Position numbers and translations under genes: made by a program. This document shows positions 19,168 through 52,662 of a stretch of DNA of 64,000 nucleotides, piece after piece; within the stretch, counting starts at the first letter, position 1; each line of letters starts with the position of its first letter. The stretch lies in the IMG/VR virus record IMGVR_UViG_3300014204_000113, positions 123,989 to 187,988 of that record, one strand, 5' to 3'. Below the pieces are notes generated by a model, which saw only the letters and a list, made by a program, of their open reading frames with translations, was not told the origin of the DNA and searched no databases. Origin of the DNA: a virus. Taxonomy: Duplodnaviria; Caudoviricetes.

Positions 19168-20484
19168 TCAAATATCCAACATATTTGCTATCTTATTTTT
19201 GTTATAATATCTTTTGTTTACCATTTCTGAATAAAAAGATTGATGCCATTCTCTATCAAAATTGGCCTTGGTGTTACAAGAGGTGCATAATGTAATTAAA
19301 TTCTTGGGATGGCAATTTAATTTATTATAATCAAGATGGTGAATTGTTAATTTATTATCATATTTTTTATTACATAGTGGATTAAGACACATATAATTAT
19401 CACGCTCTTTAATACTTTCTTTGTATTCTTTATCTTTCCACACACAACAATATGGTTCATAAGATTTACCACCTTGCCAATTATAATTGTTTGAACCACT
19501 TTGTGAAATAGATGATTTTATACTGCCACATTTTCTACATCTATGACCTTGAGAAAAACTATTATAAGAAATAAAAGATATATTTCCACATTCACATTTA
19601 TATTTTAATTTTTGATGACATCCTTTATATTCATTAAATAATGGAACACAACCACCTTCTATAAATTTTTCTTTAACAAATTCTAAACTATGTCTTATTT
19701 TATCTGAAAATTTTATAATCCCACATTCTTTACATCTATGGCCTCGCATAAGATTATCAAATGATGTATAAGAAATATTTCCACAACTGCATTGATATTT
19801 TAATTTTGTTCTAGCATCAATATATTCATTAAAGAGAGGGATGCAACCACCTTCTACAAATTTATTTTTTACATATTCAAGACTGTGTTTGCTATTGATA
19901 TTGCTTCTTTCAATTCCACATTTTCTACATCTATGACCATTACAGAAACCATTGAATGTGATTTGTGATTCATTCCCACAACTACATATATATTTTAATT
20001 TTTGTTGTGCATTTATATATTCATTAAATAATGGGATACATCCTTCTTCTATAAACTTATCTCTTACATATTCTATATCCAATCTTTTCTTTTCTGAAAT
20101 TCTTTTACCAACACAATTTGAACATCTTGATCCAGATTTAAAACTCGAAAAAGTTATAAAAGATATATTTCCACAATTACATCTATATCTCATTTTAGTG
20201 TGGTTATTTTTATAATTATCTTCTAAACATTCACACCCATTATCAATAAAAACTTTTTTGACATAGTTAAAATCTAATTTATAAAGTTCTTTATTTTTAT
20301 CAATATTACAAAATTTACATCCACTACCATTTTTTAAACCATTAAGACTAATTTTTGTTATATGACCATTATTACATTTACATTCAAGTGGAATTCTAGC
20401 ATACTTATATTCATTTTCTAATAAAACAAATCCTCTATTCTTAAATTCCCCCCTTGCTATATCTATAGTTATAATTTTAGACAT
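19168..20484 (-). CDS. HNH endonuclease with tandem Zn-ribbon repeats
   Basis: repeats of GCxPLFNEY..KLKYxCxCGN..F..GHRCxxC; RDNYMC..IHH.DYNK.N..NL.TLC.SC. Confidence 0.8.
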   Translation of the reverse strand: MSKIITIDIARGEFKNRGFVLLENEYKYARIPLECKCNNGHITKISLNGLKNGSGCKFCNIDKNKELYKLDFNYVKKVFIDNGCECLEDNYKNNHTKMRYRCNCGNISFITFSSFKSGSRCSNCVGKRISEKKRLDIEYVRDKFIEEGCIPLFNEYINAQQKLKYICSCGNESQITFNGFCNGHRCRKCGIERSNINSKHSLEYVKNKFVEGGCIPLFNEYIDARTKLKYQCSCGNISYTSFDNLMRGHRCKECGIIKFSDKIRHSLEFVKEKFIEGGCVPLFNEYKGCHQKLKYKCECGNISFISYNSFSQGHRCRKCGSIKSSISQSGSNNYNWQGGKSYEPYCCVWKDKEYKESIKERDNYMCLNPLCNKKYDNKLTIHHLDYNKLNCHPKNLITLCTSCNTKANFDREWHQSFYSEMVNKRYYNKNKIANMLDI

Positions 20485-33091: not shown

Positions 33092-34108
33092 CTATGTTCT
33101 TACTGGGTAGAAAGTTGTAGTTAAACTCACGACTCTATTGGGTGCAATTGATATTTCAAAAATCCAAAAACCCATAGCAGCACTTAATTTTCTCCCTCTC
33201 ATAAATGGAGTTTGCATTTGTGTAGTCCCACCTTGAATAACACAAACTCCTCGATAAAATAAAACTTCAGCTTTATGATAGTGGCCCAAACACATCACGT
33301 CCGGCTTTGTTCCGCTAGGAAGGGCTTCAATATATTTTTGAGCATTGTAACTTATTGCGTAGGCTGTGCCTCCGTCCGGGTGGCACAATCTTATCGTAGC
33401 AGTACAATCGTCATCGCCAATAGTGATATCAGCTTCTTGATGACCCAAACAAACTAAATCTGAACGCTTATCAGATATTTTTACACCAATATCATTTCCA
33501 CCATCTTTCCAAAAACTTCTATCATGATTACCTACAATAAAATATGTAGTTATCCCATTTCTTTTAGGATAAACTTCAGTAATTAAATTTACTTGAGCAT
33601 CACTTCCAATCGCCTCAATTTCATATTCCTGACCCTTGAACATCTTCTGGCCTTCTGCAATATCTCCAGAATGAAACACCGTTTTGATATTCTCTAATTC
33701 AAAAACATCATAGGCATAATTAAGCAACGCTTTGTCCGAATACAAACTTCCCAAATGGGTGTCTGACACATAACCAAATTTATGATGAGTTCCATCCAAA
33801 CACAGCTTAGGACTTTGTATATGCCTAGTCAACTCCTGCACTTGTCTTTGTAATTTCTTCACTTGTTCTTCTGCATCAGAAGTTTTTGGACCAGTTTCTT
33901 CTTTTTCCACAACAGGAATTTCATCACCCATTTCAGCAAGATACTTCTTGGCTTCTTCCAAAGCATCTCCCCATTTGCCAAAAAGTCTATAGAGAACACG
34001 CCTTGATGGTTTCTCTGTTTTCAGAGTGTCATAGACAACAGCAGATATGGTCCCTTGTTCTTTGATAATTGAAGCGAACTTTTCAAGTGCTTGATTTTTA
34101 TCAATCAT
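33092..34108 (-). CDS. metallophosphoesterase with N-terminal helical domain
   Basis: SDTH, HSGD, GNHD, HP.GG, GHYH. Confidence 0.85.
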   Translation of the reverse strand: MIDKNQALEKFASIIKEQGTISAVVYDTLKTEKPSRRVLYRLFGKWGDALEEAKKYLAEMGDEIPVVEKEETGPKTSDAEEQVKKLQRQVQELTRHIQSPKLCLDGTHHKFGYVSDTHLGSLYSDKALLNYAYDVFELENIKTVFHSGDIAEGQKMFKGQEYEIEAIGSDAQVNLITEVYPKRNGITTYFIVGNHDRSFWKDGGNDIGVKISDKRSDLVCLGHQEADITIGDDDCTATIRLCHPDGGTAYAISYNAQKYIEALPSGTKPDVMCLGHYHKAEVLFYRGVCVIQGGTTQMQTPFMRGRKLSAAMGFWIFEISIAPNRVVSLTTTFYPVRT

Positions 34109-35096: not shown

Positions 35097-35585
35097 TTAT
35101 CCCTGGAATATTTCTTTGAATTGTTCTGCTCTATCCAAGACATCAGAAGAGTAATTTTTATTCGCAGTTCTATTGTCAATGTTTTCACCATTGCGAACAA
35201 CTCTCATCATATTTCCTTCACCACAATTATATGCTGCGATTGCTGCTTGTTCTGCTTCTTCTTGATTCATATTGTCAAAGCCACCATGCTCGTTCAAATA
35301 ATTATATTTATCTGTAAGTATCTTAACGCCCATTTCTATATTAATAAATGGGTCTTGCCAATCATGGTTAGCTAACCAACTGCCAAAACTACGGTCATCT
35401 ATTTGAACTAGACCGTGCCCATGACCATTATCTCCTGTCATGTCTGGGTCAAGAATTAATCCGAATCTTGATTCTCTAGAAATAATCGCTGAAATAACTT
35501 CTGGTCTCCAATCATATTTCTCAGCAAGAGGTTTGATGATTGGTGCTAATTCTTTGCATAATTCAAATTCTTCTTTTTTAATCAT
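35097..35585 (-). CDS. goose-type (GH23) lysozyme-like endolysin
   Basis: AIISRESR.G, GL.QID.R, AAYN.G, D.RT...YS.DV..RA. Confidence 0.85.
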   Translation of the reverse strand: MIKKEEFELCKELAPIIKPLAEKYDWRPEVISAIISRESRFGLILDPDMTGDNGHGHGLVQIDDRSFGSWLANHDWQDPFINIEMGVKILTDKYNYLNEHGGFDNMNQEEAEQAAIAAYNCGEGNMMRVVRNGENIDNRTANKNYSSDVLDRAEQFKEIFQG

Positions 35586-35594
35586 AAAGGCTCC

Positions 35595-36080
35595 TTAAAA
35601 ATCAACGACTTCGTGCCAAGGGAACAAATCTCCAGGGTCAACTTTGCCCGCAGTTCGATCTGGAATATCTACATGACCAAAAATATCTTCAATTTTATAA
35701 ACTTCTCCCAAAGCGGTAATTAATTTCTTATTGGCTTCTATTTGTTCTTTTGGCCAATCACTACCATTTCCAACATTTTCAATCCCAACAGAATGAGAAT
35801 TAACTGTAAGTCCCTGATAATGTCCTTTGGCGTGCCATCCTTTAATATTAAATGGGAGTAACTGATAAATAGTCCCATCTTTAGCAATTACAACATGAGC
35901 AGATACTTGAGAGCGAGATGCACAAAGCCAAGATAAAGCACCTTCAAGTGAATTGTCACCAGTATAATGAATTACAATAAATTTTATTTCTATCTCACCA
36001 CCATGATTAGGTGATGGTCTATATTCTACTTGTACTCCATCTATATATAAAAAGTTGTCTATGACTTCGTATTTGGACAT
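35595..36080 (-). CDS. N-acetylmuramoyl-L-alanine amidase (Amidase_2)
   Basis: IVIHYT, VSAH, WHA, N..SVGIE, GH.D, K.DPG..FPW. Confidence 0.9.
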   Translation of the reverse strand: MSKYEVIDNFLYIDGVQVEYRPSPNHGGEIEIKFIVIHYTGDNSLEGALSWLCASRSQVSAHVVIAKDGTIYQLLPFNIKGWHAKGHYQGLTVNSHSVGIENVGNGSDWPKEQIEANKKLITALGEVYKIEDIFGHVDIPDRTAGKVDPGDLFPWHEVVDF

Positions 36081-36251: not shown

Positions 36252-36470
36252 TTAAGGTTTAATAAAGTTGTTTTTCAAAATAATTCTCAACAATATATTA
36301 ATTCTTTCATTTATCATATAACTCAACACTTCTCTTAATTGGTATTTGTTAATAACTCCTTCTTCAAACAATATTAGTAATTTTGCAGAATCTTTCACAG
36401 GAATTAATTCAAAGAAAAAATTGGTTCTGCTCATATTAAATTTTTTAGCCAAGAGTCTGATTATATCCAC
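36252..36470 (-). CDS. hypothetical protein
   Basis: AAGGA SD, GTG start. Confidence 0.45.
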   Translation of the reverse strand: MDIIRLLAKKFNMSRTNFFFELIPVKDSAKLLILFEEGVINKYQLREVLSYMINERINILLRIILKNNFIKP

Positions 36471-36497
36471 TATTGTAATTCCTTTAGAAGAAGGAAG

Positions 36498-37397
36498 TTA
36501 CTTTATTTTTATTTTTTTATTTCTTCTATCTTCATTAAAACAATTTCGGTGGTATATTACAACTCTCCCATTTGATCTTATCCCAATATACATGTTGTTT
36601 TTAGGATCATCGTATTTTTTACAATATCTACATTTTACCCAATCATAATGACCGCAAATTTCAAAAGCTTTTTCTTTTTTATTTTTCTCTCTTGTTTCCT
36701 TCATTTTCTTTTTTCTTTCATCTGATAATTTCAATCCAAAATTTGGATTATTTTCTCCCAACCATCTTTCTCTTGCTTGTTGTCTACTTTTTTCAGTAGC
36801 CCGAGATTTTCCTATTTGTGATTCTCCTATCTTTTCTTTTGCTTCTTTTGTATGATGTTTGCCAAAAAATGGATTGTTTTCTCCAGAAGTAACAACACTT
36901 AATTTCTGCTTAGTTTCTTCAGAACGAGGGACTCCAGTTTTTGATTTACTCATTTTTTCTCTGGTTTCTTTTGTTCTCTTTCTTCCTCTATTTTTAATAC
37001 TAATTTTTTGTTTAGATTCTTCTAAATGGCTAAATCCACTAATACCTTCTCCTCCGTCTGTCATATTTGTTAAGATTCCAGTCCCGTTATTTTCTCTGCC
37101 ATAGAAAGCTATTAATTCAATTTCTAAAGCAAATGCCTCTTCTTCTGTCAGGTTTATGGCATAATATTCTTCTTCATAATCTAGACCGTTTTTCAGCAAT
37201 TTATTAATTACTCTATTTTTATAAATATTTTGAACTTCTTTACCATTTTTATAAGCACTAAATTCCCAACGATGTTCGTTTATTCTTCCGTTACAACCCT
37301 TGCCAACATAAAATGGACAAGATAACCATTTGTAGAAAGGATCGTGGTTATCAGGTCTGCGAAAGATATAAACATAAAAAATATTTAAATTATCCAT
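36498..37397 (-). CDS. GIY-YIG (LEM-3-like) endonuclease with NUMOD3-like repeats
   Basis: FYVY..RPD, PFYVGKG...R, E..LI..YGR..GTG.L.N.TDGGEG, HxEExKxKIS repeats. Confidence 0.8.
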   Translation of the reverse strand: MDNLNIFYVYIFRRPDNHDPFYKWLSCPFYVGKGCNGRINEHRWEFSAYKNGKEVQNIYKNRVINKLLKNGLDYEEEYYAINLTEEEAFALEIELIAFYGRENNGTGILTNMTDGGEGISGFSHLEESKQKISIKNRGRKRTKETREKMSKSKTGVPRSEETKQKLSVVTSGENNPFFGKHHTKEAKEKIGESQIGKSRATEKSRQQARERWLGENNPNFGLKLSDERKKKMKETREKNKKEKAFEICGHYDWVKCRYCKKYDDPKNNMYIGIRSNGRVVIYHRNCFNEDRRNKKIKIK

Positions 37398-38496
37398 CAA
37401 CTAAGTCCTTTAATAAAATCAACTTTCCATCAGTTCGATTCACAAGGTCTTCCCACTTAACTTTACCAGAATTAAGCAACTCAACGCGTCTAGGACCGAG
37501 TAAATTTTTTTGTTGAATAGGAGTTTGTTTGTTAAAAAATTGCTCATAATTTCCAGTTTCAAAACCAAAATCTAATATCTTGCGCCTTCCGCCCGCATCA
37601 ATATTTTTATTATCTCTAGCAACCCAAGGACGTGCAATTTCATCAAGTTCTTGAATTGAATTAAAACCTAACTCTTTCCAGCTAACTAGCTGGGTTACAT
37701 AAAAACATCTTCATCGTGGGTGGAGTAAAAGTTGTGGTCTTGGCTCTCCTTTTAAATACACCATTCCATCTAAAATAGCGCATCTTTCACAGAGACCCCG
37801 TCCAGTCTTACTAGCATAAGAAGTTTCTAGTGTCGCGCAATACTTGTAACCAGTAATTATATCTTGATTTTTAGAATAGACCTCTTCACGTGCAAAGTTA
37901 TTAATAGCAGATACATAATCTCGTCCAAGTGAGATGGCTTCTTTTTTGCTCATATCAAAACCAGTTGTCAATCTTGTTGTAAATTCTGCGTAGCTATCAC
38001 CTTGTAGCATTCCAGAAGTTATTTCATTTCTAATTTCTTCTGCCATTCCAGAATAATTTTTTTGAACCCAACCACTTAATGTATTGCCACCAACGGGAAC
38101 ATCTCGAATAATTCCTTGGAGTTGTTCCGCAGTTAAAGAAGTTTCATTAAAACTTGGAACTTTACCATCAAATGATAAGATACTGTTATGAACAAGAAAA
38201 CTAGATGTTCCTACTTGGGTGGCGATAGAGGTAATACCATTATATAAAATATATTGTATTCCTAAAGTCATATTGCTAAGATTGTCAAGAACTGCTAATG
38301 CTCTACCTTCATACCAATCTGGCATTGAACTTCTATATGTATCTATCTTTGATAATATTTCTGTTTCAGCTTTGCGGACTGACTTTAATAGTTTCTTCAA
38401 TTCTTCGTCTGAATATTTATGCAACTCATAATGCCAATCTATATTCTTGGCTAGCAATATTAATTCTATCGTTTCTTGTTCAGTTAATTTAGCCAT
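37390..38496 (-). CDS. minor head / head morphogenesis protein (SPP1 gp7 / Mu gpF-like) with in-frame UGA at 37711-37713
   Basis: ATL...C..C..LDG, HPR[TGA]RC, then 106 further codons with family-like C-terminus (Y.QFF..Q....Q..LG..R..L...G..DLV). Confidence 0.85.
37669..37697 (-). promoter_or_regulatory. SECIS-like hairpin
   Basis: CCAGCU-AGUU-AGCUGG stem 18-33 nt after UGA; lower UAAC/GUUA stem. Confidence 0.6.
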
Positions 38497-38532
38497 TTAT
38501 AATCTCTTATTTATTTTAAATTTTTTAGAAAT

Positions 38533-38817
38533 CTATTTTCTTTTCATTGTAACAATACCAAACTCTATTTCTTCTTCATGTGTTAATTTTCTAATCTTCC
38601 CCACCATTCCTTTATCATTCTTTTCTTCATGAATTCGCATATTTAACATTCCAGAATTGTTTGTATCAATATTAAAAAAACTACAATGACCTTTTCCTAA
38701 ATAAGCCACGCCTTCTGTACTTATAATTCTAGCACAATTTGGAATTAGATAATGATTAACACATTTTTCTTCACAATCTCTCTGTAGAAATGGGCACCAA
38801 CTTTTTTTATTAGACAT
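38533..38817 (-). CDS. hypothetical protein
   Basis: GGAG SD; Cys-containing. Confidence 0.55.
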   Translation of the reverse strand: MSNKKSWCPFLQRDCEEKCVNHYLIPNCARIISTEGVAYLGKGHCSFFNIDTNNSGMLNMRIHEEKNDKGMVGKIRKLTHEEEIEFGIVTMKRK

Positions 38818-40140: not shown

Positions 40141-41100
40141 TTAATCTTTCTGTGGTAAAATACAAAAATTATCCCCTCTTTTGTTTTGTAATCTTACATA
40201 ACCAGGATAATTTTTTCTTAATCGTTGGCGAAAAGCATTTACAGTTATTCCAACAAATTTAGCTGCTTCTATTGTACTTTCAAATATCATCCCATTCACT
40301 TCAACTGGAATTTTACTTTTATCCCCAATTTTTCTTTTAGTTTCTCCAGAAGGATGTTTGCCAAATAAATAATGTTTCTCACCAGAATTTAAACCTAAAT
40401 GTGACTCACTATTTTTTCTTCTTGATTCTTCTGAATGTTTCATGCCAAGGCATGGATGAACATTATTAGAATAAAACTCAATAAGAAATTCACTAATTTT
40501 CTTTTTTGTTTCTTCTGTATGACGACAGCCAAAAAATGGGTTCTTTTCACCAACTTGAACTCCTTTAAATCTATCGCTCACTATTTGTTTTTCTTCTGCG
40601 GAATAAATTCTCCCAAAATTGGGGTTCAATTCTCCTTTCCATCTTTCACTCAATTCTTTTTTATGTTCTTCTGTATGTTTCTTTCTTTTTTGAAATATTC
40701 TTAACCATTGTATAATTTCTTCTGTATGTCTATACCCAACACTGCCTTCACCACCATCAGTTAGGTTGGCAAGGCATCCCGTACCATTGTTTATTCTTCC
40801 ATATTTAGCAATCAATTTCTTTTCCAAAGCAAACGCTTCTTTTTCAATTAAATTGTCAAACAGTATAACTTCTTTGAAGTCTGAATTATTTTCCCAAAGT
40901 GTATGGATTATATTAATCTTAATATCTTTTCTTCCAGATTTATTTAAAAGTTTATTTGCTTCTTGTCTATGACGATACATTCTCCAATCACAACCTTTAC
41001 CAAAATAAAATGGTTGCCACAACCAAATATAGAATGGATCAGGATAATCTGGTCTTAATAAAACATAGACATAAAAACAATTCAAATCGGCAGTAGCCAT
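40141..41100 (-). CDS. GIY-YIG (LEM-3-like) endonuclease with NUMOD3-like repeats
   Basis: same N-terminal motifs as 36498 ORF; HTEETKKKIS repeats. Confidence 0.8.
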   Translation of the reverse strand: MATADLNCFYVYVLLRPDYPDPFYIWLWQPFYFGKGCDWRMYRHRQEANKLLNKSGRKDIKINIIHTLWENNSDFKEVILFDNLIEKEAFALEKKLIAKYGRINNGTGCLANLTDGGEGSVGYRHTEEIIQWLRIFQKRKKHTEEHKKELSERWKGELNPNFGRIYSAEEKQIVSDRFKGVQVGEKNPFFGCRHTEETKKKISEFLIEFYSNNVHPCLGMKHSEESRRKNSESHLGLNSGEKHYLFGKHPSGETKRKIGDKSKIPVEVNGMIFESTIEAAKFVGITVNAFRQRLRKNYPGYVRLQNKRGDNFCILPQKD

Positions 41101-44531: not shown

Positions 44532-46148
44532 CTATTTTCCTGGGCCTCTTTTGATCGAGAAGGGCGTTCCTACGCCAGCAGGTGACTTAGAAGTATCAGT
44601 AGCAACGCTCGTATATTTACTTAGATCAGGACTACCTATTGACATAGCACCACCAAGAAAATCTTCCTTATCAAACATTGCCATCACTTCTGCCCATTCC
44701 CAATCAGCATTTAAAATGCCTCTGCGTCTCAATTCTTCAAATACCAATTCTTTAGGCAGAATCTTAAATTGTGCAGCACGAAGCAATACTTCAGCATCCA
44801 TCGTCTGCATCCATCTAAAGTCAGTATTAACATCAACCGAACCACCAGAATTTTCACCAATATACTTAGAAGTAAACACAAGCAGTTGTTCAACAAAGTC
44901 TTTGAATTCCAACGCCCAACTTCTTAATGTGCTATCACTCTCACCAGATGACAATGCTCTTTCAGTAGCAGTCACATTACCAGTATTAGGCATAAGCAAT
45001 TGCAATCCAAACAAAGCCATTTTGGTTTCTAAATCAATCAATTGGGAGTGACCGGCATTGATAGCAGCGCCTTGATGTTCTACATATTTAAGTTCTGAAT
45101 CTGGATGGTCTGAATGAATCATTCTATTAGGACCAAGTTCTATTTCACCTAATTTATTTGGATCAGATAACTTCTTACCAAACAAGATAGGCAATCTTGT
45201 AAAATGCAAAATATTGGTTTGGTCAGAAGTTGACTGCCAGTGAGAAAGGTTAAGATAAGCTAAATCTTCCAAAGGTGGTTTAGCAGTCAATGCAGACAAT
45301 CTTTCTCCTGGCATAAACACAGCTAATGGTATCAAATCTTTAATTGAGTTTGTACCAGAATCTATTTTAACCCAATCGCTGTTATTTTTCTGTTTTGTTT
45401 TGTCTGGTTCTTCCCATACTTCATATTTTCCAGGTTCAAGTAATCTGATTCTATTAACTTCAACAGTATTATAAGAATTTTCTGGATCATCTTTTTCAAA
45501 CACTTCTTTAATTCTAAGTTGAGTAAAAACCTCTTTCCCATTTCTTCTTTCTGTTTTCCAACCTATAATTGACTCAGTAGGAATATGCACCCAATATGGA
45601 CGCAAACCTCTTTTATCTGCTTCAGCCTTGGTCATTGGTCCATCAGTAGGAGGATATTCAGCAAGACAAGTAGTGACGCCATCACTTATCCCTCTAGCAA
45701 AAACATCCGCAAGAAAAACATCAGCATTGTTGCCTCTCAAGTCCATATCTTCTATATAACCATCTTTATTTTTAGTTCCACGAATAACTTCTGGAATATC
45801 TTCTTTCCAAGTAATAGGTTTTGAAAATATTTGTCCAGTAAGATATGAAACGGTTCTCCCAAAACCATTGAATAGAATAGTTTTACTTAGTCTATTATTA
45901 TAATTTTCTGTGCTTTCTTTAGGTTCTTTAGGAAGATAAGTAGTGCCTGCTGCAAGCATCGCCTCAGTGCCACCAAGCAAAGTCCTAATCAAGTCTAATC
46001 TTGCTTGTTGTTGAACATAATTATTACAAGGCTTGGAAATATCACCTTTTGTACTAGCAGAAGAATCGCCTTTTACATCAATCTGAATCTTCTCCCCCGT
46101 AATGCTATCTAATAATACACGTCCTTTGTCGTCAATTGCTATTGCCAT
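44532..46148 (-). CDS. portal protein (DUF4055-like)
   Basis: GGT.AM..AG..YLP...E....Y..RL, RPYWV, PPL.DLA.LN..H.Q..SD..IL, TATE. Confidence 0.9.
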   Translation of the reverse strand: MAIAIDDKGRVLLDSITGEKIQIDVKGDSSASTKGDISKPCNNYVQQQARLDLIRTLLGGTEAMLAAGTTYLPKEPKESTENYNNRLSKTILFNGFGRTVSYLTGQIFSKPITWKEDIPEVIRGTKNKDGYIEDMDLRGNNADVFLADVFARGISDGVTTCLAEYPPTDGPMTKAEADKRGLRPYWVHIPTESIIGWKTERRNGKEVFTQLRIKEVFEKDDPENSYNTVEVNRIRLLEPGKYEVWEEPDKTKQKNNSDWVKIDSGTNSIKDLIPLAVFMPGERLSALTAKPPLEDLAYLNLSHWQSTSDQTNILHFTRLPILFGKKLSDPNKLGEIELGPNRMIHSDHPDSELKYVEHQGAAINAGHSQLIDLETKMALFGLQLLMPNTGNVTATERALSSGESDSTLRSWALEFKDFVEQLLVFTSKYIGENSGGSVDVNTDFRWMQTMDAEVLLRAAQFKILPKELVFEELRRRGILNADWEWAEVMAMFDKEDFLGGAMSIGSPDLSKYTSVATDTSKSPAGVGTPFSIKRGPGK

Positions 46149-47223: not shown

Positions 47224-47736
47224 TCATTTCATTTCTCTTGGTTTTCCGCTATAAATCAACACCCAATCATCGCCAGCCATGCAATCATCATGCAACAAAT
47301 CCACGTTGATGCCCCACCAAGAACCTCTCGCCCTAGCACCAACCAAGAATTTAGCAACCAACTCAGAACAAACCGTTTTCTTCCAATGAAACCATTTGGC
47401 AATATGCGTCGCGAAAAGAAGAAGGCGAAAATACGGATAAATTTTTCCCAATTGATCGCCAACATTGAGACAACCTTGAGCAAAAGCTGGTTGTGTCATG
47501 TTCTTCCATCTAAAGATTATCACTTCGCTGCCAGGATGATCGGAAAACAAATTCAGACATTTGGTTTTCCATTCCGTGGTTTCAAAAGTGGTGCCATATT
47601 CATCCAAGATTATTCCAGAATGGGTATAATTCGATTTGCCGTCACCATTCCAAAGCGCTTGAAAGAAATTGATGAATCTGTCCAACCAACCAGTTCCCTC
47701 CAACAAGAATATGTCTCCGGGCTTAATGTTTACCAT
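47224..47736 (-). CDS. permuted papain-like (NlpC/P60, YiiX-like) protein
   Basis: PGDI, YTHSGI, G..Y, CSELV. Confidence 0.75.
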   Translation of the reverse strand: MVNIKPGDIFLLEGTGWLDRFINFFQALWNGDGKSNYTHSGIILDEYGTTFETTEWKTKCLNLFSDHPGSEVIIFRWKNMTQPAFAQGCLNVGDQLGKIYPYFRLLLFATHIAKWFHWKKTVCSELVAKFLVGARARGSWWGINVDLLHDDCMAGDDWVLIYSGKPREMK

Positions 47737-49444: not shown

Positions 49445-50464
49445 TTATCCGTTAGATACTTTATCTAGATTTAAAGAAAACTGTTGGGATTGTTTTTCTT
49501 TTTCTGCTTTATTGCGAGCCACAGTAGCTTTTCCTTTTTCAATAGATTCTTTAGTTCTTTTTCTACCAGTCATAGTTTCGCTTTGTTTCTTTTTATGTTC
49601 TTCTGATTTTGGTTTTCTCAATTTTTGTTTAGTCTCTTCTGTATGAGTAGAACCAACCTTGGCCTTATGTTGGCAATCTGTAGAACAGTATTTTCTTTTA
49701 TTATTTTCATTTATGTTTCTAGGCATGAATGGTTTTCCACAAAGTTCACATGGTTTTTCTTCAAAGAAGTTTTTCTTTTTGAAACCGCTATCTCCTTTTC
49801 TCTCTTTTGCTGCCAAACTCTGTTTATTTTTAGTTTCATCAGAACGTTTTTGACCAACTTGAGAAAGATGATAGCATTCAGGAGAACAATATATCTTCTT
49901 AGGGTTCTTTGAATGAAACGGATTACCACATTGAGCACAAGGTCTATCTGGTTTTCTGCGAATTACCGAACATGCTTTATAAAAACATTCTGAAGAACAA
50001 TATTTCTTTTCTTGATAATGAACAATTAAAAATTTCTTACCACATTCTAGGCAAGTTCTCGGTTCTTTATATTTTTCAGAAAATCCAGACGGTCCTTCAC
50101 CACCATCTGTTAAGTTACATAAAATTCCAGTGCCATTACTTCTCCTTCCATAAAGAGCAATGAGTTCCATTTCTAAATCAAGCGCTTCTTGTTCAGTTAA
50201 ATTTTCAGCAAACTTTATTTTTATTACAGACAGGCCATTCTTCCATAATTTATGAATAACTTTAATTTTTAAATTTCTCTTTTTAGAACCGAGGAGTTTT
50301 CTAGCTTCTTTTTCATGATCATTTATTCTCCTTCCTTTTCCTTTACCCACATAAAACGGACAAGGGTTCCATTTGTAGAATGGATCATGATCATCATTGC
50401 GACAAAGGAGGTAAACATAAAAAATCCTTTTATAACTGTTTTTTGTCATATCTTTAATATCCAA
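49445..50464 (-). CDS. GIY-YIG (LEM-3-like) endonuclease with Zn-finger and NUMOD3-like repeats
   Basis: FYVY, PFYVGKG, NLTDGGEG; three CxxC..YCSxxC repeats. Confidence 0.8.
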   Translation of the reverse strand: MDIKDMTKNSYKRIFYVYLLCRNDDHDPFYKWNPCPFYVGKGKGRRINDHEKEARKLLGSKKRNLKIKVIHKLWKNGLSVIKIKFAENLTEQEALDLEMELIALYGRRSNGTGILCNLTDGGEGPSGFSEKYKEPRTCLECGKKFLIVHYQEKKYCSSECFYKACSVIRRKPDRPCAQCGNPFHSKNPKKIYCSPECYHLSQVGQKRSDETKNKQSLAAKERKGDSGFKKKNFFEEKPCELCGKPFMPRNINENNKRKYCSTDCQHKAKVGSTHTEETKQKLRKPKSEEHKKKQSETMTGRKRTKESIEKGKATVARNKAEKEKQSQQFSLNLDKVSNG

Positions 50465-50481
50465 ATATATAAGTTATTGAA

Positions 50482-52662
50482 TTACCACAAGATTTCAGTT
50501 GAACTAGATTTTATTTCATTTATCGGCCAGCGGGCAGCGCAGTAGTATCCGGCCGCGTCGGACCAGTGAGTAAGTAAAGGTGTGGATTTCTTATCAATTT
50601 CGCCGCTCCCCCCTTCAAGCACTTTGGTCCCTTCAAAACATTTCACAACAGAGGGAGCACGTCTAGAATCCACGAGGAACCTTATAACACCAGACACGGA
50701 GCAGAGACGGCTGTTGACCGCGTTTACACGCGAACGTTCGCGAGGATTGGCAGATTGGAAGTAGAAGTATACTCGTGAATCTCCATTAGGTTTCATCCAT
50801 TTATTGTGAAAGCATTTCTTTATAATATCGATATCACTTCCAGTGGTTTGTGCAGAACCGCCTGCTCCACCAGTCGCATCACCATATACATGAATTTCTC
50901 CTTCATGCATACCCCAATCTGATATCAATTTGTTACATACTGCAACTGTATTGCTATTATGAGGAATATGTACTTCTCCAATTACACCAGTACCAATAAC
51001 TGGACGAGTAAACTCTTGATTTTTTACTTTATCATAAATTACTTCCGTAACTCCTGGCATCAATTGCTCTTGACAAACTACCGCTACACCAGGACTAATA
51101 TTAAAGTCAAAACAAAAGATTAATGGTAATTTTTTATTATATTCTAATGGACGACAATGTGTTTTTTCTGTAAAAGGATAATATGCACGTCCTTGGAACG
51201 ATTCGAACGATCCCATGAATTCCTGATTGAAGGTCAATTCATCTAGAAATTCGCGGGCTGACGCTATTTCAGCAGCATCCAAAATGTCGGCTGAAACCCA
51301 ATGAAAGTACGAAAATTCCGGTATTTGACCTAACTCAATGGCTTTTGCTTCTATCCTCTTTGCATGTTGTGCCAAATCATAATAATGATTCCTACCCTCT
51401 GGCACCCCAATAAAGTCACACCACCCTTTCCTATCAGACAGAGCAGGTCGCACATGCTCAGGCCAAGCTCTAGCTTTCATATTTCCATATTCATCTAATA
51501 TCCCCCCATCCCAAGGCGATCCCTCAATTCGCTCTGGTTTATCCATCCCAATAACCCACAGTTCAGCACTGCTCTTGAACTTAATCACCATATCAGATTC
51601 ACGTATTGCAGTTCTTCTATCCCTTCCTGGCAATGCCCAATCAGGCACCATGGCTTTCAGGTCAGCCCAATAAATACGTTTTGCTTGTCCCCATGTAGGC
51701 GCAGCCACGAAGTATCTTGGCCCATAATCTTTAGAACAACTCATAGGGTCCAATGTACATGGCAATGGCATATCTATATTAGTATTCCATGGATCAATGC
51801 ATCTCAATATCAGTTTTCTTTTTGCCAATTCAGTATTGTGAGTAACTATTCCATTAGCAAGAAAGTTGTGATAATCTTTAACTGTTAGGTCATAAGTTTT
51901 TTCTGGTTTAACTTCTTTTACTGATAATACTCTTTCCCATGTTATATCTGCATTAACTAGAAAATTATATAAGTTTAAATCTAAATATTTCTTGATTTTG
52001 TTTAATTTGTTTATTGTAATTCTTTCAACAAGAGCCTTTCGTTTATTATTTTTTATCCAAGAACTTAATTCTTTTACTAAATCAGTAGGAGCATCAATAT
52101 AATCTATTTGAATATGCTTTCTATAACCTTGTGCTTTAACAGATTCATATTTAAGACTAGAAACAACCTCATCATAAGTCAATGGAATAAATTCACATCC
52201 ATCAGAATATTGCTTTGATACTGCGACCAACATTCCTCTTTCCAGATCACCTGCTTCAACCCATTTTTTGTTTGCCCATATTGGATGGTTAGAAGTGCAT
52301 CTTAAATATCTGAATGCTTCATTGGTGCCTGATAATTTTATTTGTACAATAGACTTCTTACCATTCTTTAATACATGCTCTACTTCTTTAGACTCCAAGA
52401 CATACATTGGATTAGCAGACAATACCATATCACCAGCCTTAATTTTCTCTACTGGTTTTTGTTTGCCATTGGCCATAGTGACAAGAGTGCCTTTGGCAAG
52501 ACATTTACCAGAACGTCTTCCTGCTGGCACTACTTTGAATCTAGCTGGACTGTTTACAAGTCTAGATTGCTCATCATGGTCTCTTAACTTAGTCCATCTG
52601 GCTGGAAAATCATTACCAAGTTGTTTTGACTCTGGTACTCCATAACTATGTTTAGGTGACAT
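50482..52662 (-). CDS. terL: terminase large subunit (intein-containing)
   Basis: AGRRSGK|T Walker A, ILDE Walker B, PEG.NH.Y, DFN nuclease motif, H..DA..Y. Confidence 0.92.
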   Translation of the reverse strand: MSPKHSYGVPESKQLGNDFPARWTKLRDHDEQSRLVNSPARFKVVPAGRRSGKCLAKGTLVTMANGKQKPVEKIKAGDMVLSANPMYVLESKEVEHVLKNGKKSIVQIKLSGTNEAFRYLRCTSNHPIWANKKWVEAGDLERGMLVAVSKQYSDGCEFIPLTYDEVVSSLKYESVKAQGYRKHIQIDYIDAPTDLVKELSSWIKNNKRKALVERITINKLNKIKKYLDLNLYNFLVNADITWERVLSVKEVKPEKTYDLTVKDYHNFLANGIVTHNTELAKRKLILRCIDPWNTNIDMPLPCTLDPMSCSKDYGPRYFVAAPTWGQAKRIYWADLKAMVPDWALPGRDRRTAIRESDMVIKFKSSAELWVIGMDKPERIEGSPWDGGILDEYGNMKARAWPEHVRPALSDRKGWCDFIGVPEGRNHYYDLAQHAKRIEAKAIELGQIPEFSYFHWVSADILDAAEIASAREFLDELTFNQEFMGSFESFQGRAYYPFTEKTHCRPLEYNKKLPLIFCFDFNISPGVAVVCQEQLMPGVTEVIYDKVKNQEFTRPVIGTGVIGEVHIPHNSNTVAVCNKLISDWGMHEGEIHVYGDATGGAGGSAQTTGSDIDIIKKCFHNKWMKPNGDSRVYFYFQSANPRERSRVNAVNSRLCSVSGVIRFLVDSRRAPSVVKCFEGTKVLEGGSGEIDKKSTPLLTHWSDAAGYYCAARWPINEIKSSSTEILW
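51835..52503 (-). mobile_element. intein (223 aa) in terminase Walker A
   Basis: starts CLAKGT, TSNHP block B, YDLTV...HNFLANGIVTHN|T; no LAGLIDADG motifs seen. Confidence 0.9.

Follow-up and report, generated by a model that had tools for sequence, protein, structure and literature searches.

A 64,000-nucleotide stretch of Caudoviricetes DNA (IMG/VR record IMGVR_UViG_3300014204_000113, positions 123,989 to 187,988; hereafter the window) carries a Mu F / SPP1 gp7-like minor head protein gene with an in-frame UGA at codon 262, and our reading, to which we assign a probability of roughly 0.78, is that this codon is decoded as selenocysteine (Sec, U) by the SelB protein and Sec-tRNA(Sec) of the host. 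An initial annotation of the window had proposed selenocysteine at the conserved Cys of this head protein, and the proposal is now supported by Cys/TGA pairs among its relatives, by a hairpin with the geometry of a bacterial selenocysteine insertion sequence (SECIS) and by the lack of genome-wide recoding. In silico, the selenocysteine reading is strongly supported.

The window forms the final 64 kb of the virus record, which is complete at 187,988 bp and has direct terminal repeats and a GC content of 34%. The head gene lies on the minus strand and starts with the ATG at 38496. Under translation table 11 it stops after 261 codons at the TGA at 37713..37711; with this TGA decoded, it continues for 106 further in-frame codons (37710..37393), giving 368 codons in all (38496..37393), up to a TAA at 37392..37390, and its 3’ end overlaps the start of the next gene (ATG at 37397..37395). 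The initial annotation had reported HPR-TGA-RC at this position, the 106 codons after it and the overlap, with every coordinate and count correct. The 368-residue read-through translation, which includes ...LLLHPR-U-RCFYVTQLVSW..., matches PHROG 241 ‘head morphogenesis’ (E 3e-34) over residues 25-356, a match that spans the TGA, and a tblastn comparison to annotated head-morphogenesis genes of cultured phages aligned residues 25-367 and likewise crossed it. The match to Pfam Phage_Mu_F (PF04233; E 2.9e-5) ends at the HPRURC motif and scores 25.2 bits, below the curated cut-off of 29.6, which suggests that the window protein belongs to a diverged subfamily.

The UGA falls within a Cys/His cluster, CxxC...HxxCxC, the first half of which is the CxxC of C236 and C239 (37791..37780) and the second half H259-P-R-U262-R-C264 (37722..37705), so that the UGA aligns with the first Cys of HxxCxC. 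Conservation of this motif, which the initial annotation had asserted, is borne out in a 35-sequence alignment, where C236, C239, D243, H259, C/U262 and C264 are invariant. The cluster is probably a metal-binding or redox site.

The part of the gene downstream of the UGA evolves as protein-coding sequence. Between the window and relative L007, the 102 codons after the motif have a synonymous divergence (dS) of 0.79 and a nonsynonymous divergence (dN) of 0.14, for a dN/dS of 0.18, and the 63 substitutions in the downstream part include no stops and no frameshifts; other pairs give dN/dS values of 0.19-0.28 over this part. Conservation resumes at the very next residues after the UGA (R-C-F/L...LVSW), and the extension has its earliest in-frame ATG, GTG or TTG at codon 77. 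This combination of purifying selection, no early start and immediate conservation argues that the locus is neither a split gene nor a pseudogene. Judged by these substitution patterns, the sequence after the TGA must be under purifying selection and translated, and ribosomes must pass the UGA. The 106-codon C-terminal domain, which is homologous to the C-termini of full-length relatives, would be reachable only through decoding of this codon.

A first protein search returned three classes of relatives: proteins of 363-368 amino acids with HxxCRC, three short proteins of 260-262 amino acids ending at the motif, and longer proteins of 377-572 amino acids. The DNA of the three short relatives has a single in-frame TGA followed by about 102 conserved codons that lead to a TAA or TAG. 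L007 (93% identical to the window protein) and L002 (from a 189-kb phage, 52% identical) both have HPR-TGA-RC, and L004 has HINCR-TGA, placing the TGA at the second Cys. Scans of IMG/VR and JGI metagenomes gave L044, on an 84-kb contig of 55-60% GC, with HHR-TGA-RC, and about 25 relatives with TGT or TGC at both Cys codons. We also performed an exhaustive HMMER search with the N-terminal 261 residues against 1.8 billion representatives clustered at 50% identity, in which 8 of the 150 best matches listed terminate exactly one residue short of the first Cys. Four of those eight were fetched (L062-L065), and all four carry a TGA there, with frame and homology continuing beyond it. Searching with the C-terminal fragment returned only three short proteins, which led to another TGA form, L061.

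These relatives make up nine independent TGA lineages with GC contents of 34-60% and 33-93% identity to the window protein. The TGA is at the first Cys in eight of them (window/L007, L061, L002/L015/L028, L044, L062, L063, L064 and L065) and at the second Cys in one (L004/L005/L006). Every TGA form has one internal TGA, after which the frame runs on for about 100 codons through the conserved C-terminus. Close relatives differ in their Cys/U state, with L009 being (C,C), L002 (U,C) and L004 (C,U), and a maximum-likelihood tree places at least 4 changes of TGA state on well-supported branches. The two TGA positions, at the first and at the second Cys, must be independent events. Because of these comparative data a chance origin of the TGA is excluded.

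A SECIS-like hairpin follows the UGA inside the reading frame. In the window it is CCAGCU-AGUU-AGCUGG (37693..37678, loop 37687..37684), found where the initial annotation had described it, with the loop G and U at nucleotides 25 and 26 after the UGA, and it may reach about 37670-37700 through additional, weaker pairing below the stem. Written in the same way as arm, loop and arm, the hairpins of the relatives are CCGGCU-AGUU-AGCUGG in L007, CCAACU-AGUU-AGUUGG in L004, GGAUGCCA-GUUU-UGGUGUCU in L002, ACUUACCA-GUUU-UGGUAAGU in L061, GUUGCC-CGUGAC-GGCAAC in L044, UGUGAGAC-GGU-GUCUUACA in L062, CUGUAAC-CGUGA-GUUACAG in L063, UGGCUUC-CCGUGAC-GAAGUCA in L064 and GGGACGUG-GUUA-CACGUUCC in L065. All TGA forms have a stem of 6-8 bp and GU in a loop that starts 16-23 nucleotides past the UGA, the loop G being at nucleotide 19 in six lineages and at nucleotide 24-25 in three. 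Bacterial SECIS elements are described as having a 6-8 bp stem and a conserved loop G about 20 nucleotides after the UGA (PMC4605307), and the hairpins of all nine TGA lineages fit that description. Stem sequences differ among lineages, with compensatory changes: between the window and L004 a G-C pair is replaced by A-U through two synonymous third-position changes, the L007 stem has a G.U pair relative to the window, and the stems of L002 and L061 differ by two double and three single changes that preserve pairing.

For a comparison with the Cys forms we counted a hairpin as present when it had a stem score of at least 5.5 and a loop of 3-8 nucleotides that contains GU and starts 14-26 nucleotides after the codon. 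Such a hairpin is present in 9/9 independent TGA lineages versus 2/25 Cys forms. The Pro (CCN) and Trp (UGG) codons of the peptide can force pairing by themselves; as a control, 5000 synonymous recodings of each peptide were made from the codons of its own gene. The share of recodings as good as the observed hairpin was 0.2-6.8% across lineages (each p <=0.07; combined p 2e-9), the window hairpin being equalled in 53 of 5000. Codon choice favours the hairpin beyond the peptide constraint.

A hairpin, ACUUAC-CCGUAUUA-GUAAGU, also remains after the Cys codons of the Cys-form genes L024/L012, a sister lineage of the window gene, and its outer stem is common to the SECIS-like hairpin of L061. We speculate that it could be a relic of a recent reversion from Sec to Cys.

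The initial annotation had held that TGA is not globally recoded, and stop codon use across the 188-kb genome agrees: TGA terminates 38 of 183 non-overlapping open reading frames of at least 100 amino acids, and TGG codons are used 711 times. The median in-frame extension past these TGA stops is 6 codons, and the longest, at 106, belongs to the head gene. Genome-wide reassignment would leave TGA without terminator function and many genes in need of its decoding; here the head gene is the only one with a coding-like extension. Inspection of all long-extension TGAs in the 188-kb genome gave no second convincing in-frame TGA, and the TGA at window position 47226 was rejected as a second recoding case, its continuation being low-complexity hydrophobic sequence. 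ARAGORN found five phage tRNAs (Arg, Pro, Gly, Ser and Met), none of which is a suppressor tRNA or a tRNA-Sec, and a SelB wing domain was not found in the phage genome. The relative L061:3-692 apparently ends at a TGA as well (…NLGD-TGA), in which case one mRNA would contain both a decoded and a terminating UGA.

The working criteria for naming a new selenoprotein family are that homologues with Cys exist, that the TGA is conserved in two or more sequences and that a SECIS follows closely (PMC1976440); the window gene and its relatives show all three. The comparisons that the initial annotation had named as checks, for the TGA in sequence data, for Cys/TGA pairs among homologues and for a hairpin conserved along with the TGA, likewise came out in favour of selenocysteine. 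Several observations weigh on the other side. The Fisher test of hairpin presence in TGA lineages versus Cys forms (p 1e-6) overstates independence, as the TGA lineages are related to one another. Some of the stem pairing stems from conserved Pro (CCN) and Trp (UGG) codons, and the two Cys forms with a hairpin at the same place are L024 and L030. A scan of 36400-38700 with Rfam at E values up to 10 gave chance matches only, with no SECIS family among them and none at the hairpin, a negative tempered by the short and variable nature of bacterial SECIS elements. With neither a tRNA-Sec nor a SelB wing domain from the phage, Sec decoding would rest wholly on the host. Finally, Logan contigs cover the TGA site without a differing letter in four runs, which come from two landfill studies and one groundwater study, and three of the four carry a flag as potential sources of the record itself, so that this coverage, taken alone, is weak evidence.

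The alternative with the most in its favour is a SelB-independent programmed readthrough by a near-cognate tRNA (Trp, Cys or Arg), perhaps aided by the hairpin, which would produce much truncated and little full-length protein, as for the A1 protein of phage Qbeta. It accommodates the evident translation of the downstream part, the presumably low copy number required of a minor head protein and the possibility that a 3’ hairpin stimulates such readthrough too, and the identity of the inserted residue as Sec is a prediction. However, a ratio of short to long product does not explain why the UGA is restricted to one of two invariant Cys codons in nine lineages, Trp or Arg at an invariant Cys of the Cys/His cluster should damage the site, and the stem length, spacing and loop GU match those of a SelB-bound SECIS; we consider this explanation unlikely. 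It is very improbable that the TGA is a true stop, with the 261-residue N-terminal part as the functional protein and the remainder a decaying or separately expressed remnant. Gene callers do give products of 259-264 residues in all TGA lineages, and TGT or TGC is one substitution away from TGA, but strong purifying selection acts on the downstream part, which stays free of frameshifts and stops in lineages of 35-50% identity, lacks a start codon for 77 codons and is conserved from the very next codons (RC...), and the independent TGA events fall at the same two codons together with a hairpin.

Stop codon recoding is known in some large phages, and a phage- or host-wide code with TGA as sense (of the code 4 or 25 type, or with TGA as Cys) would also account for a decoded UGA. 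The 38 of 183 long open reading frames that end at TGA, the median extension of 6 codons, the head gene as the sole convincing case in 188 kb, the five phage tRNAs with no suppressor among them and the apparent TGA end of L061 make such a code hardly credible. Least probable of all is a sequencing or assembly error, for which the single-base difference from TGT or TGC is the only opening: the identical TGA is in the contigs of four runs, the TGA state recurs in many diverged relatives from other samples, and the TGA forms of two other lineages are each present in three separate assemblies.

Under the selenocysteine reading, the phage would supply only the cis element. The host SelB carrying Sec-tRNA(Sec) would bind the in-frame hairpin, recruited 17-23 nucleotides downstream of the UGA, and deliver Sec at that codon, so that the product would be a 368-residue protein with Sec in place of one ligand of the CxxC...HxxCxC cluster. 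When decoding fails, for example under selenium shortage, a 261-residue product would be made, missing both the C-terminal domain and the final two residues of the cluster. If only a few copies of the protein are required, as we take to be the case by analogy with SPP1 gp7, inefficient decoding might be tolerated. The head protein would presumably be located in the virion, and head assembly could in this way be tied to selenium supply. Since either Cys of CxC can be replaced, the two may be chemically equivalent, whether as a redox pair or as ligands that share one metal.

A phage with no tRNA-Sec or SelB of its own must borrow those of its host, and the host would accordingly be expected to have selABCD and to use Sec. 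The best match to the tRNA-Sec model RF01852 in the phage genome (38 bits, genome positions 40772-40852) was rejected because its anticodon is UCU, making it a tRNA-Arg. This 83-nucleotide tRNA (G000:C1:40773-40855, about 83 kb before the window start) has an unusual variable region of 12 nucleotides and reads AGA, the commonest Arg codon of the phage; it is an odd class-II-like tRNA-Arg scoring below the RF01852 gathering score. GenBank phages gave no Megablast match to the region. The closest cultured phages, judged by the portal protein, infect Proteobacteria and are only 36-38% identical, which does not point to a host. In a scan of genome contigs, one Cys-form relative was on an 11-kb contig binned in a Desulfocapsa metagenome-assembled genome, which has SelB; a sample of 401 genomes of the same phylum contained three Mu F relatives, none of the three with an internal stop. 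A protein atlas search with the endolysin gave no usable host taxon.

We know of no function for the Mu F CxC site. An AlphaFold model of the head protein (predicted local distance difference test score 79.7) has long helices at the N-terminus and places the cluster within a small beta/alpha domain. A Foldseek search of the PDB with this model gave no match below E 0.001 and only helical-bundle noise, and no relative with a solved structure emerged when PDB sequences were searched with a profile. In two further Mu F relatives from IMG/VR (L056:2489-4567 and L057:1229-3532) an intein is inserted between HPR and CRC, with junctions HPR|C...intein...N|CRC. The Intein_splicing matches have E values of about 1e-6, below the Pfam cut-off, and L057 also has an endonuclease domain. 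These junctions indicate that the +1 extein nucleophile is the Cys that is UGA in the window, so that the same codon would be a target of both intein insertion and Sec recoding. Many of the HMMER representatives of 550-700 amino acids may be further intein-bearing forms.

The head gene is part of a minus-strand head module in the order terminase large subunit (50482-52662), portal (44532..46148; PHROG 145, E 1e-107) and head gene. The next gene, which overlaps the 3’ end of the head gene, is a GIY-YIG/NUMOD3 homing endonuclease gene (36498..37400, minus strand; Pfam NUMOD3 E 3e-20, LEM-3 GIY-YIG E 4e-6), included here for context. Free-standing homing endonuclease genes of the GIY-YIG/NUMOD3 and HNH types stud the structural module at 36498-37400, 40141-41100, 49445-50464 and 19168-20484, all on the minus strand, and the endonuclease slot after the head gene varies, being occupied by a 413-residue GIY-YIG protein in L009 and by none in L007. 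Just downstream of the head gene are Amidase_2 and SLT lysin genes and a metallophosphoesterase gene (35097-36080 and 33092-34108, both minus strand), an arrangement kept in L002, L007 and L009.

We think it probable that head proteins of the Mu F/gp7 type are a selenoprotein family widespread among phages, and they would be the first selenoproteins of prokaryotic viruses: phages of 34-60% GC and with unrelated hosts would have repeatedly swapped either Cys of CxC for Sec and evolved their own in-frame SECIS to hijack the host SelB, making virion assembly or infectivity dependent on the selenium metabolism of hosts that are Sec users. Selenocysteine decoding has so far been treated as a trait of cellular genomes. 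If this reading is correct, bacterial viruses join the users of the 21st amino acid, the TGA form is a sequence-only marker of a Sec-using host, phage production is linked to selenium supply, and the family offers a natural set of diverse, compact SECIS elements with matched Cys controls. The Mu F CxC would be pointed to as a chemically active site, given that either Cys could be Sec and that inteins insert exactly there. Gene callers currently cut the TGA-form head genes at 259-264 residues.

Phage selenoproteins are not mentioned in a comparative genomics survey, in a 2025 prediction method that reports new families or in a 2026 bacterial database (PMC5029168, PMC12013277, PMC13326102), and our literature searches on phage and viral selenoproteins returned no phage case, the viral ones concerning animal viruses only. 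The window gene resembles bacterial selenoproteins with a SECIS inside the coding sequence, such as E. coli fdhF (PMC4605307), in that an in-frame UGA aligns with a Cys of homologues while TGA is otherwise a stop, and in that a 6-8 bp hairpin lies directly 3’ in the coding sequence with its loop G or GU about 19-25 nucleotides after the UGA. It differs from them in belonging to a lytic-type 188-kb phage and specifying a head-assembly or virion protein instead of a cellular oxidoreductase, in that its decoding machinery is not co-encoded and would be that of the host, and in being known from its sequence only. With the Cys-form Mu F / SPP1 gp7 proteins (PF04233, PHROG 241) the window protein shares the position after the portal gene, CxxC...HxxCxC, the C-terminal domain and probably the fold family, differing in having one cluster Cys encoded as UGA.

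The glutathione peroxidase homologues of poxviruses, a topic of PMC6769590 and PMC1802603, are likewise virus genes reliant on host Sec machinery, but they are captured cellular enzymes of animal viruses that depend on the eukaryotic SECIS system. The window gene, by comparison, belongs to a bacterial virus, has a structural or morphogenetic product and carries a bacterial-type hairpin inside the reading frame. The A1 protein of phage Qbeta arises from a leaky UGA at the end of the complete coat protein that is read by tRNA-Trp at low efficiency. The window gene, likewise a phage structural gene with a UGA inside it, would similarly yield an extended minor virion protein, whereas its UGA stands in place of an invariant Cys within a domain and is followed by a SECIS-type hairpin. 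What is known, then, is the bacterial decoding mechanism; what would be new are the phage carrier, the head-morphogenesis or virion protein class and the borrowed machinery.

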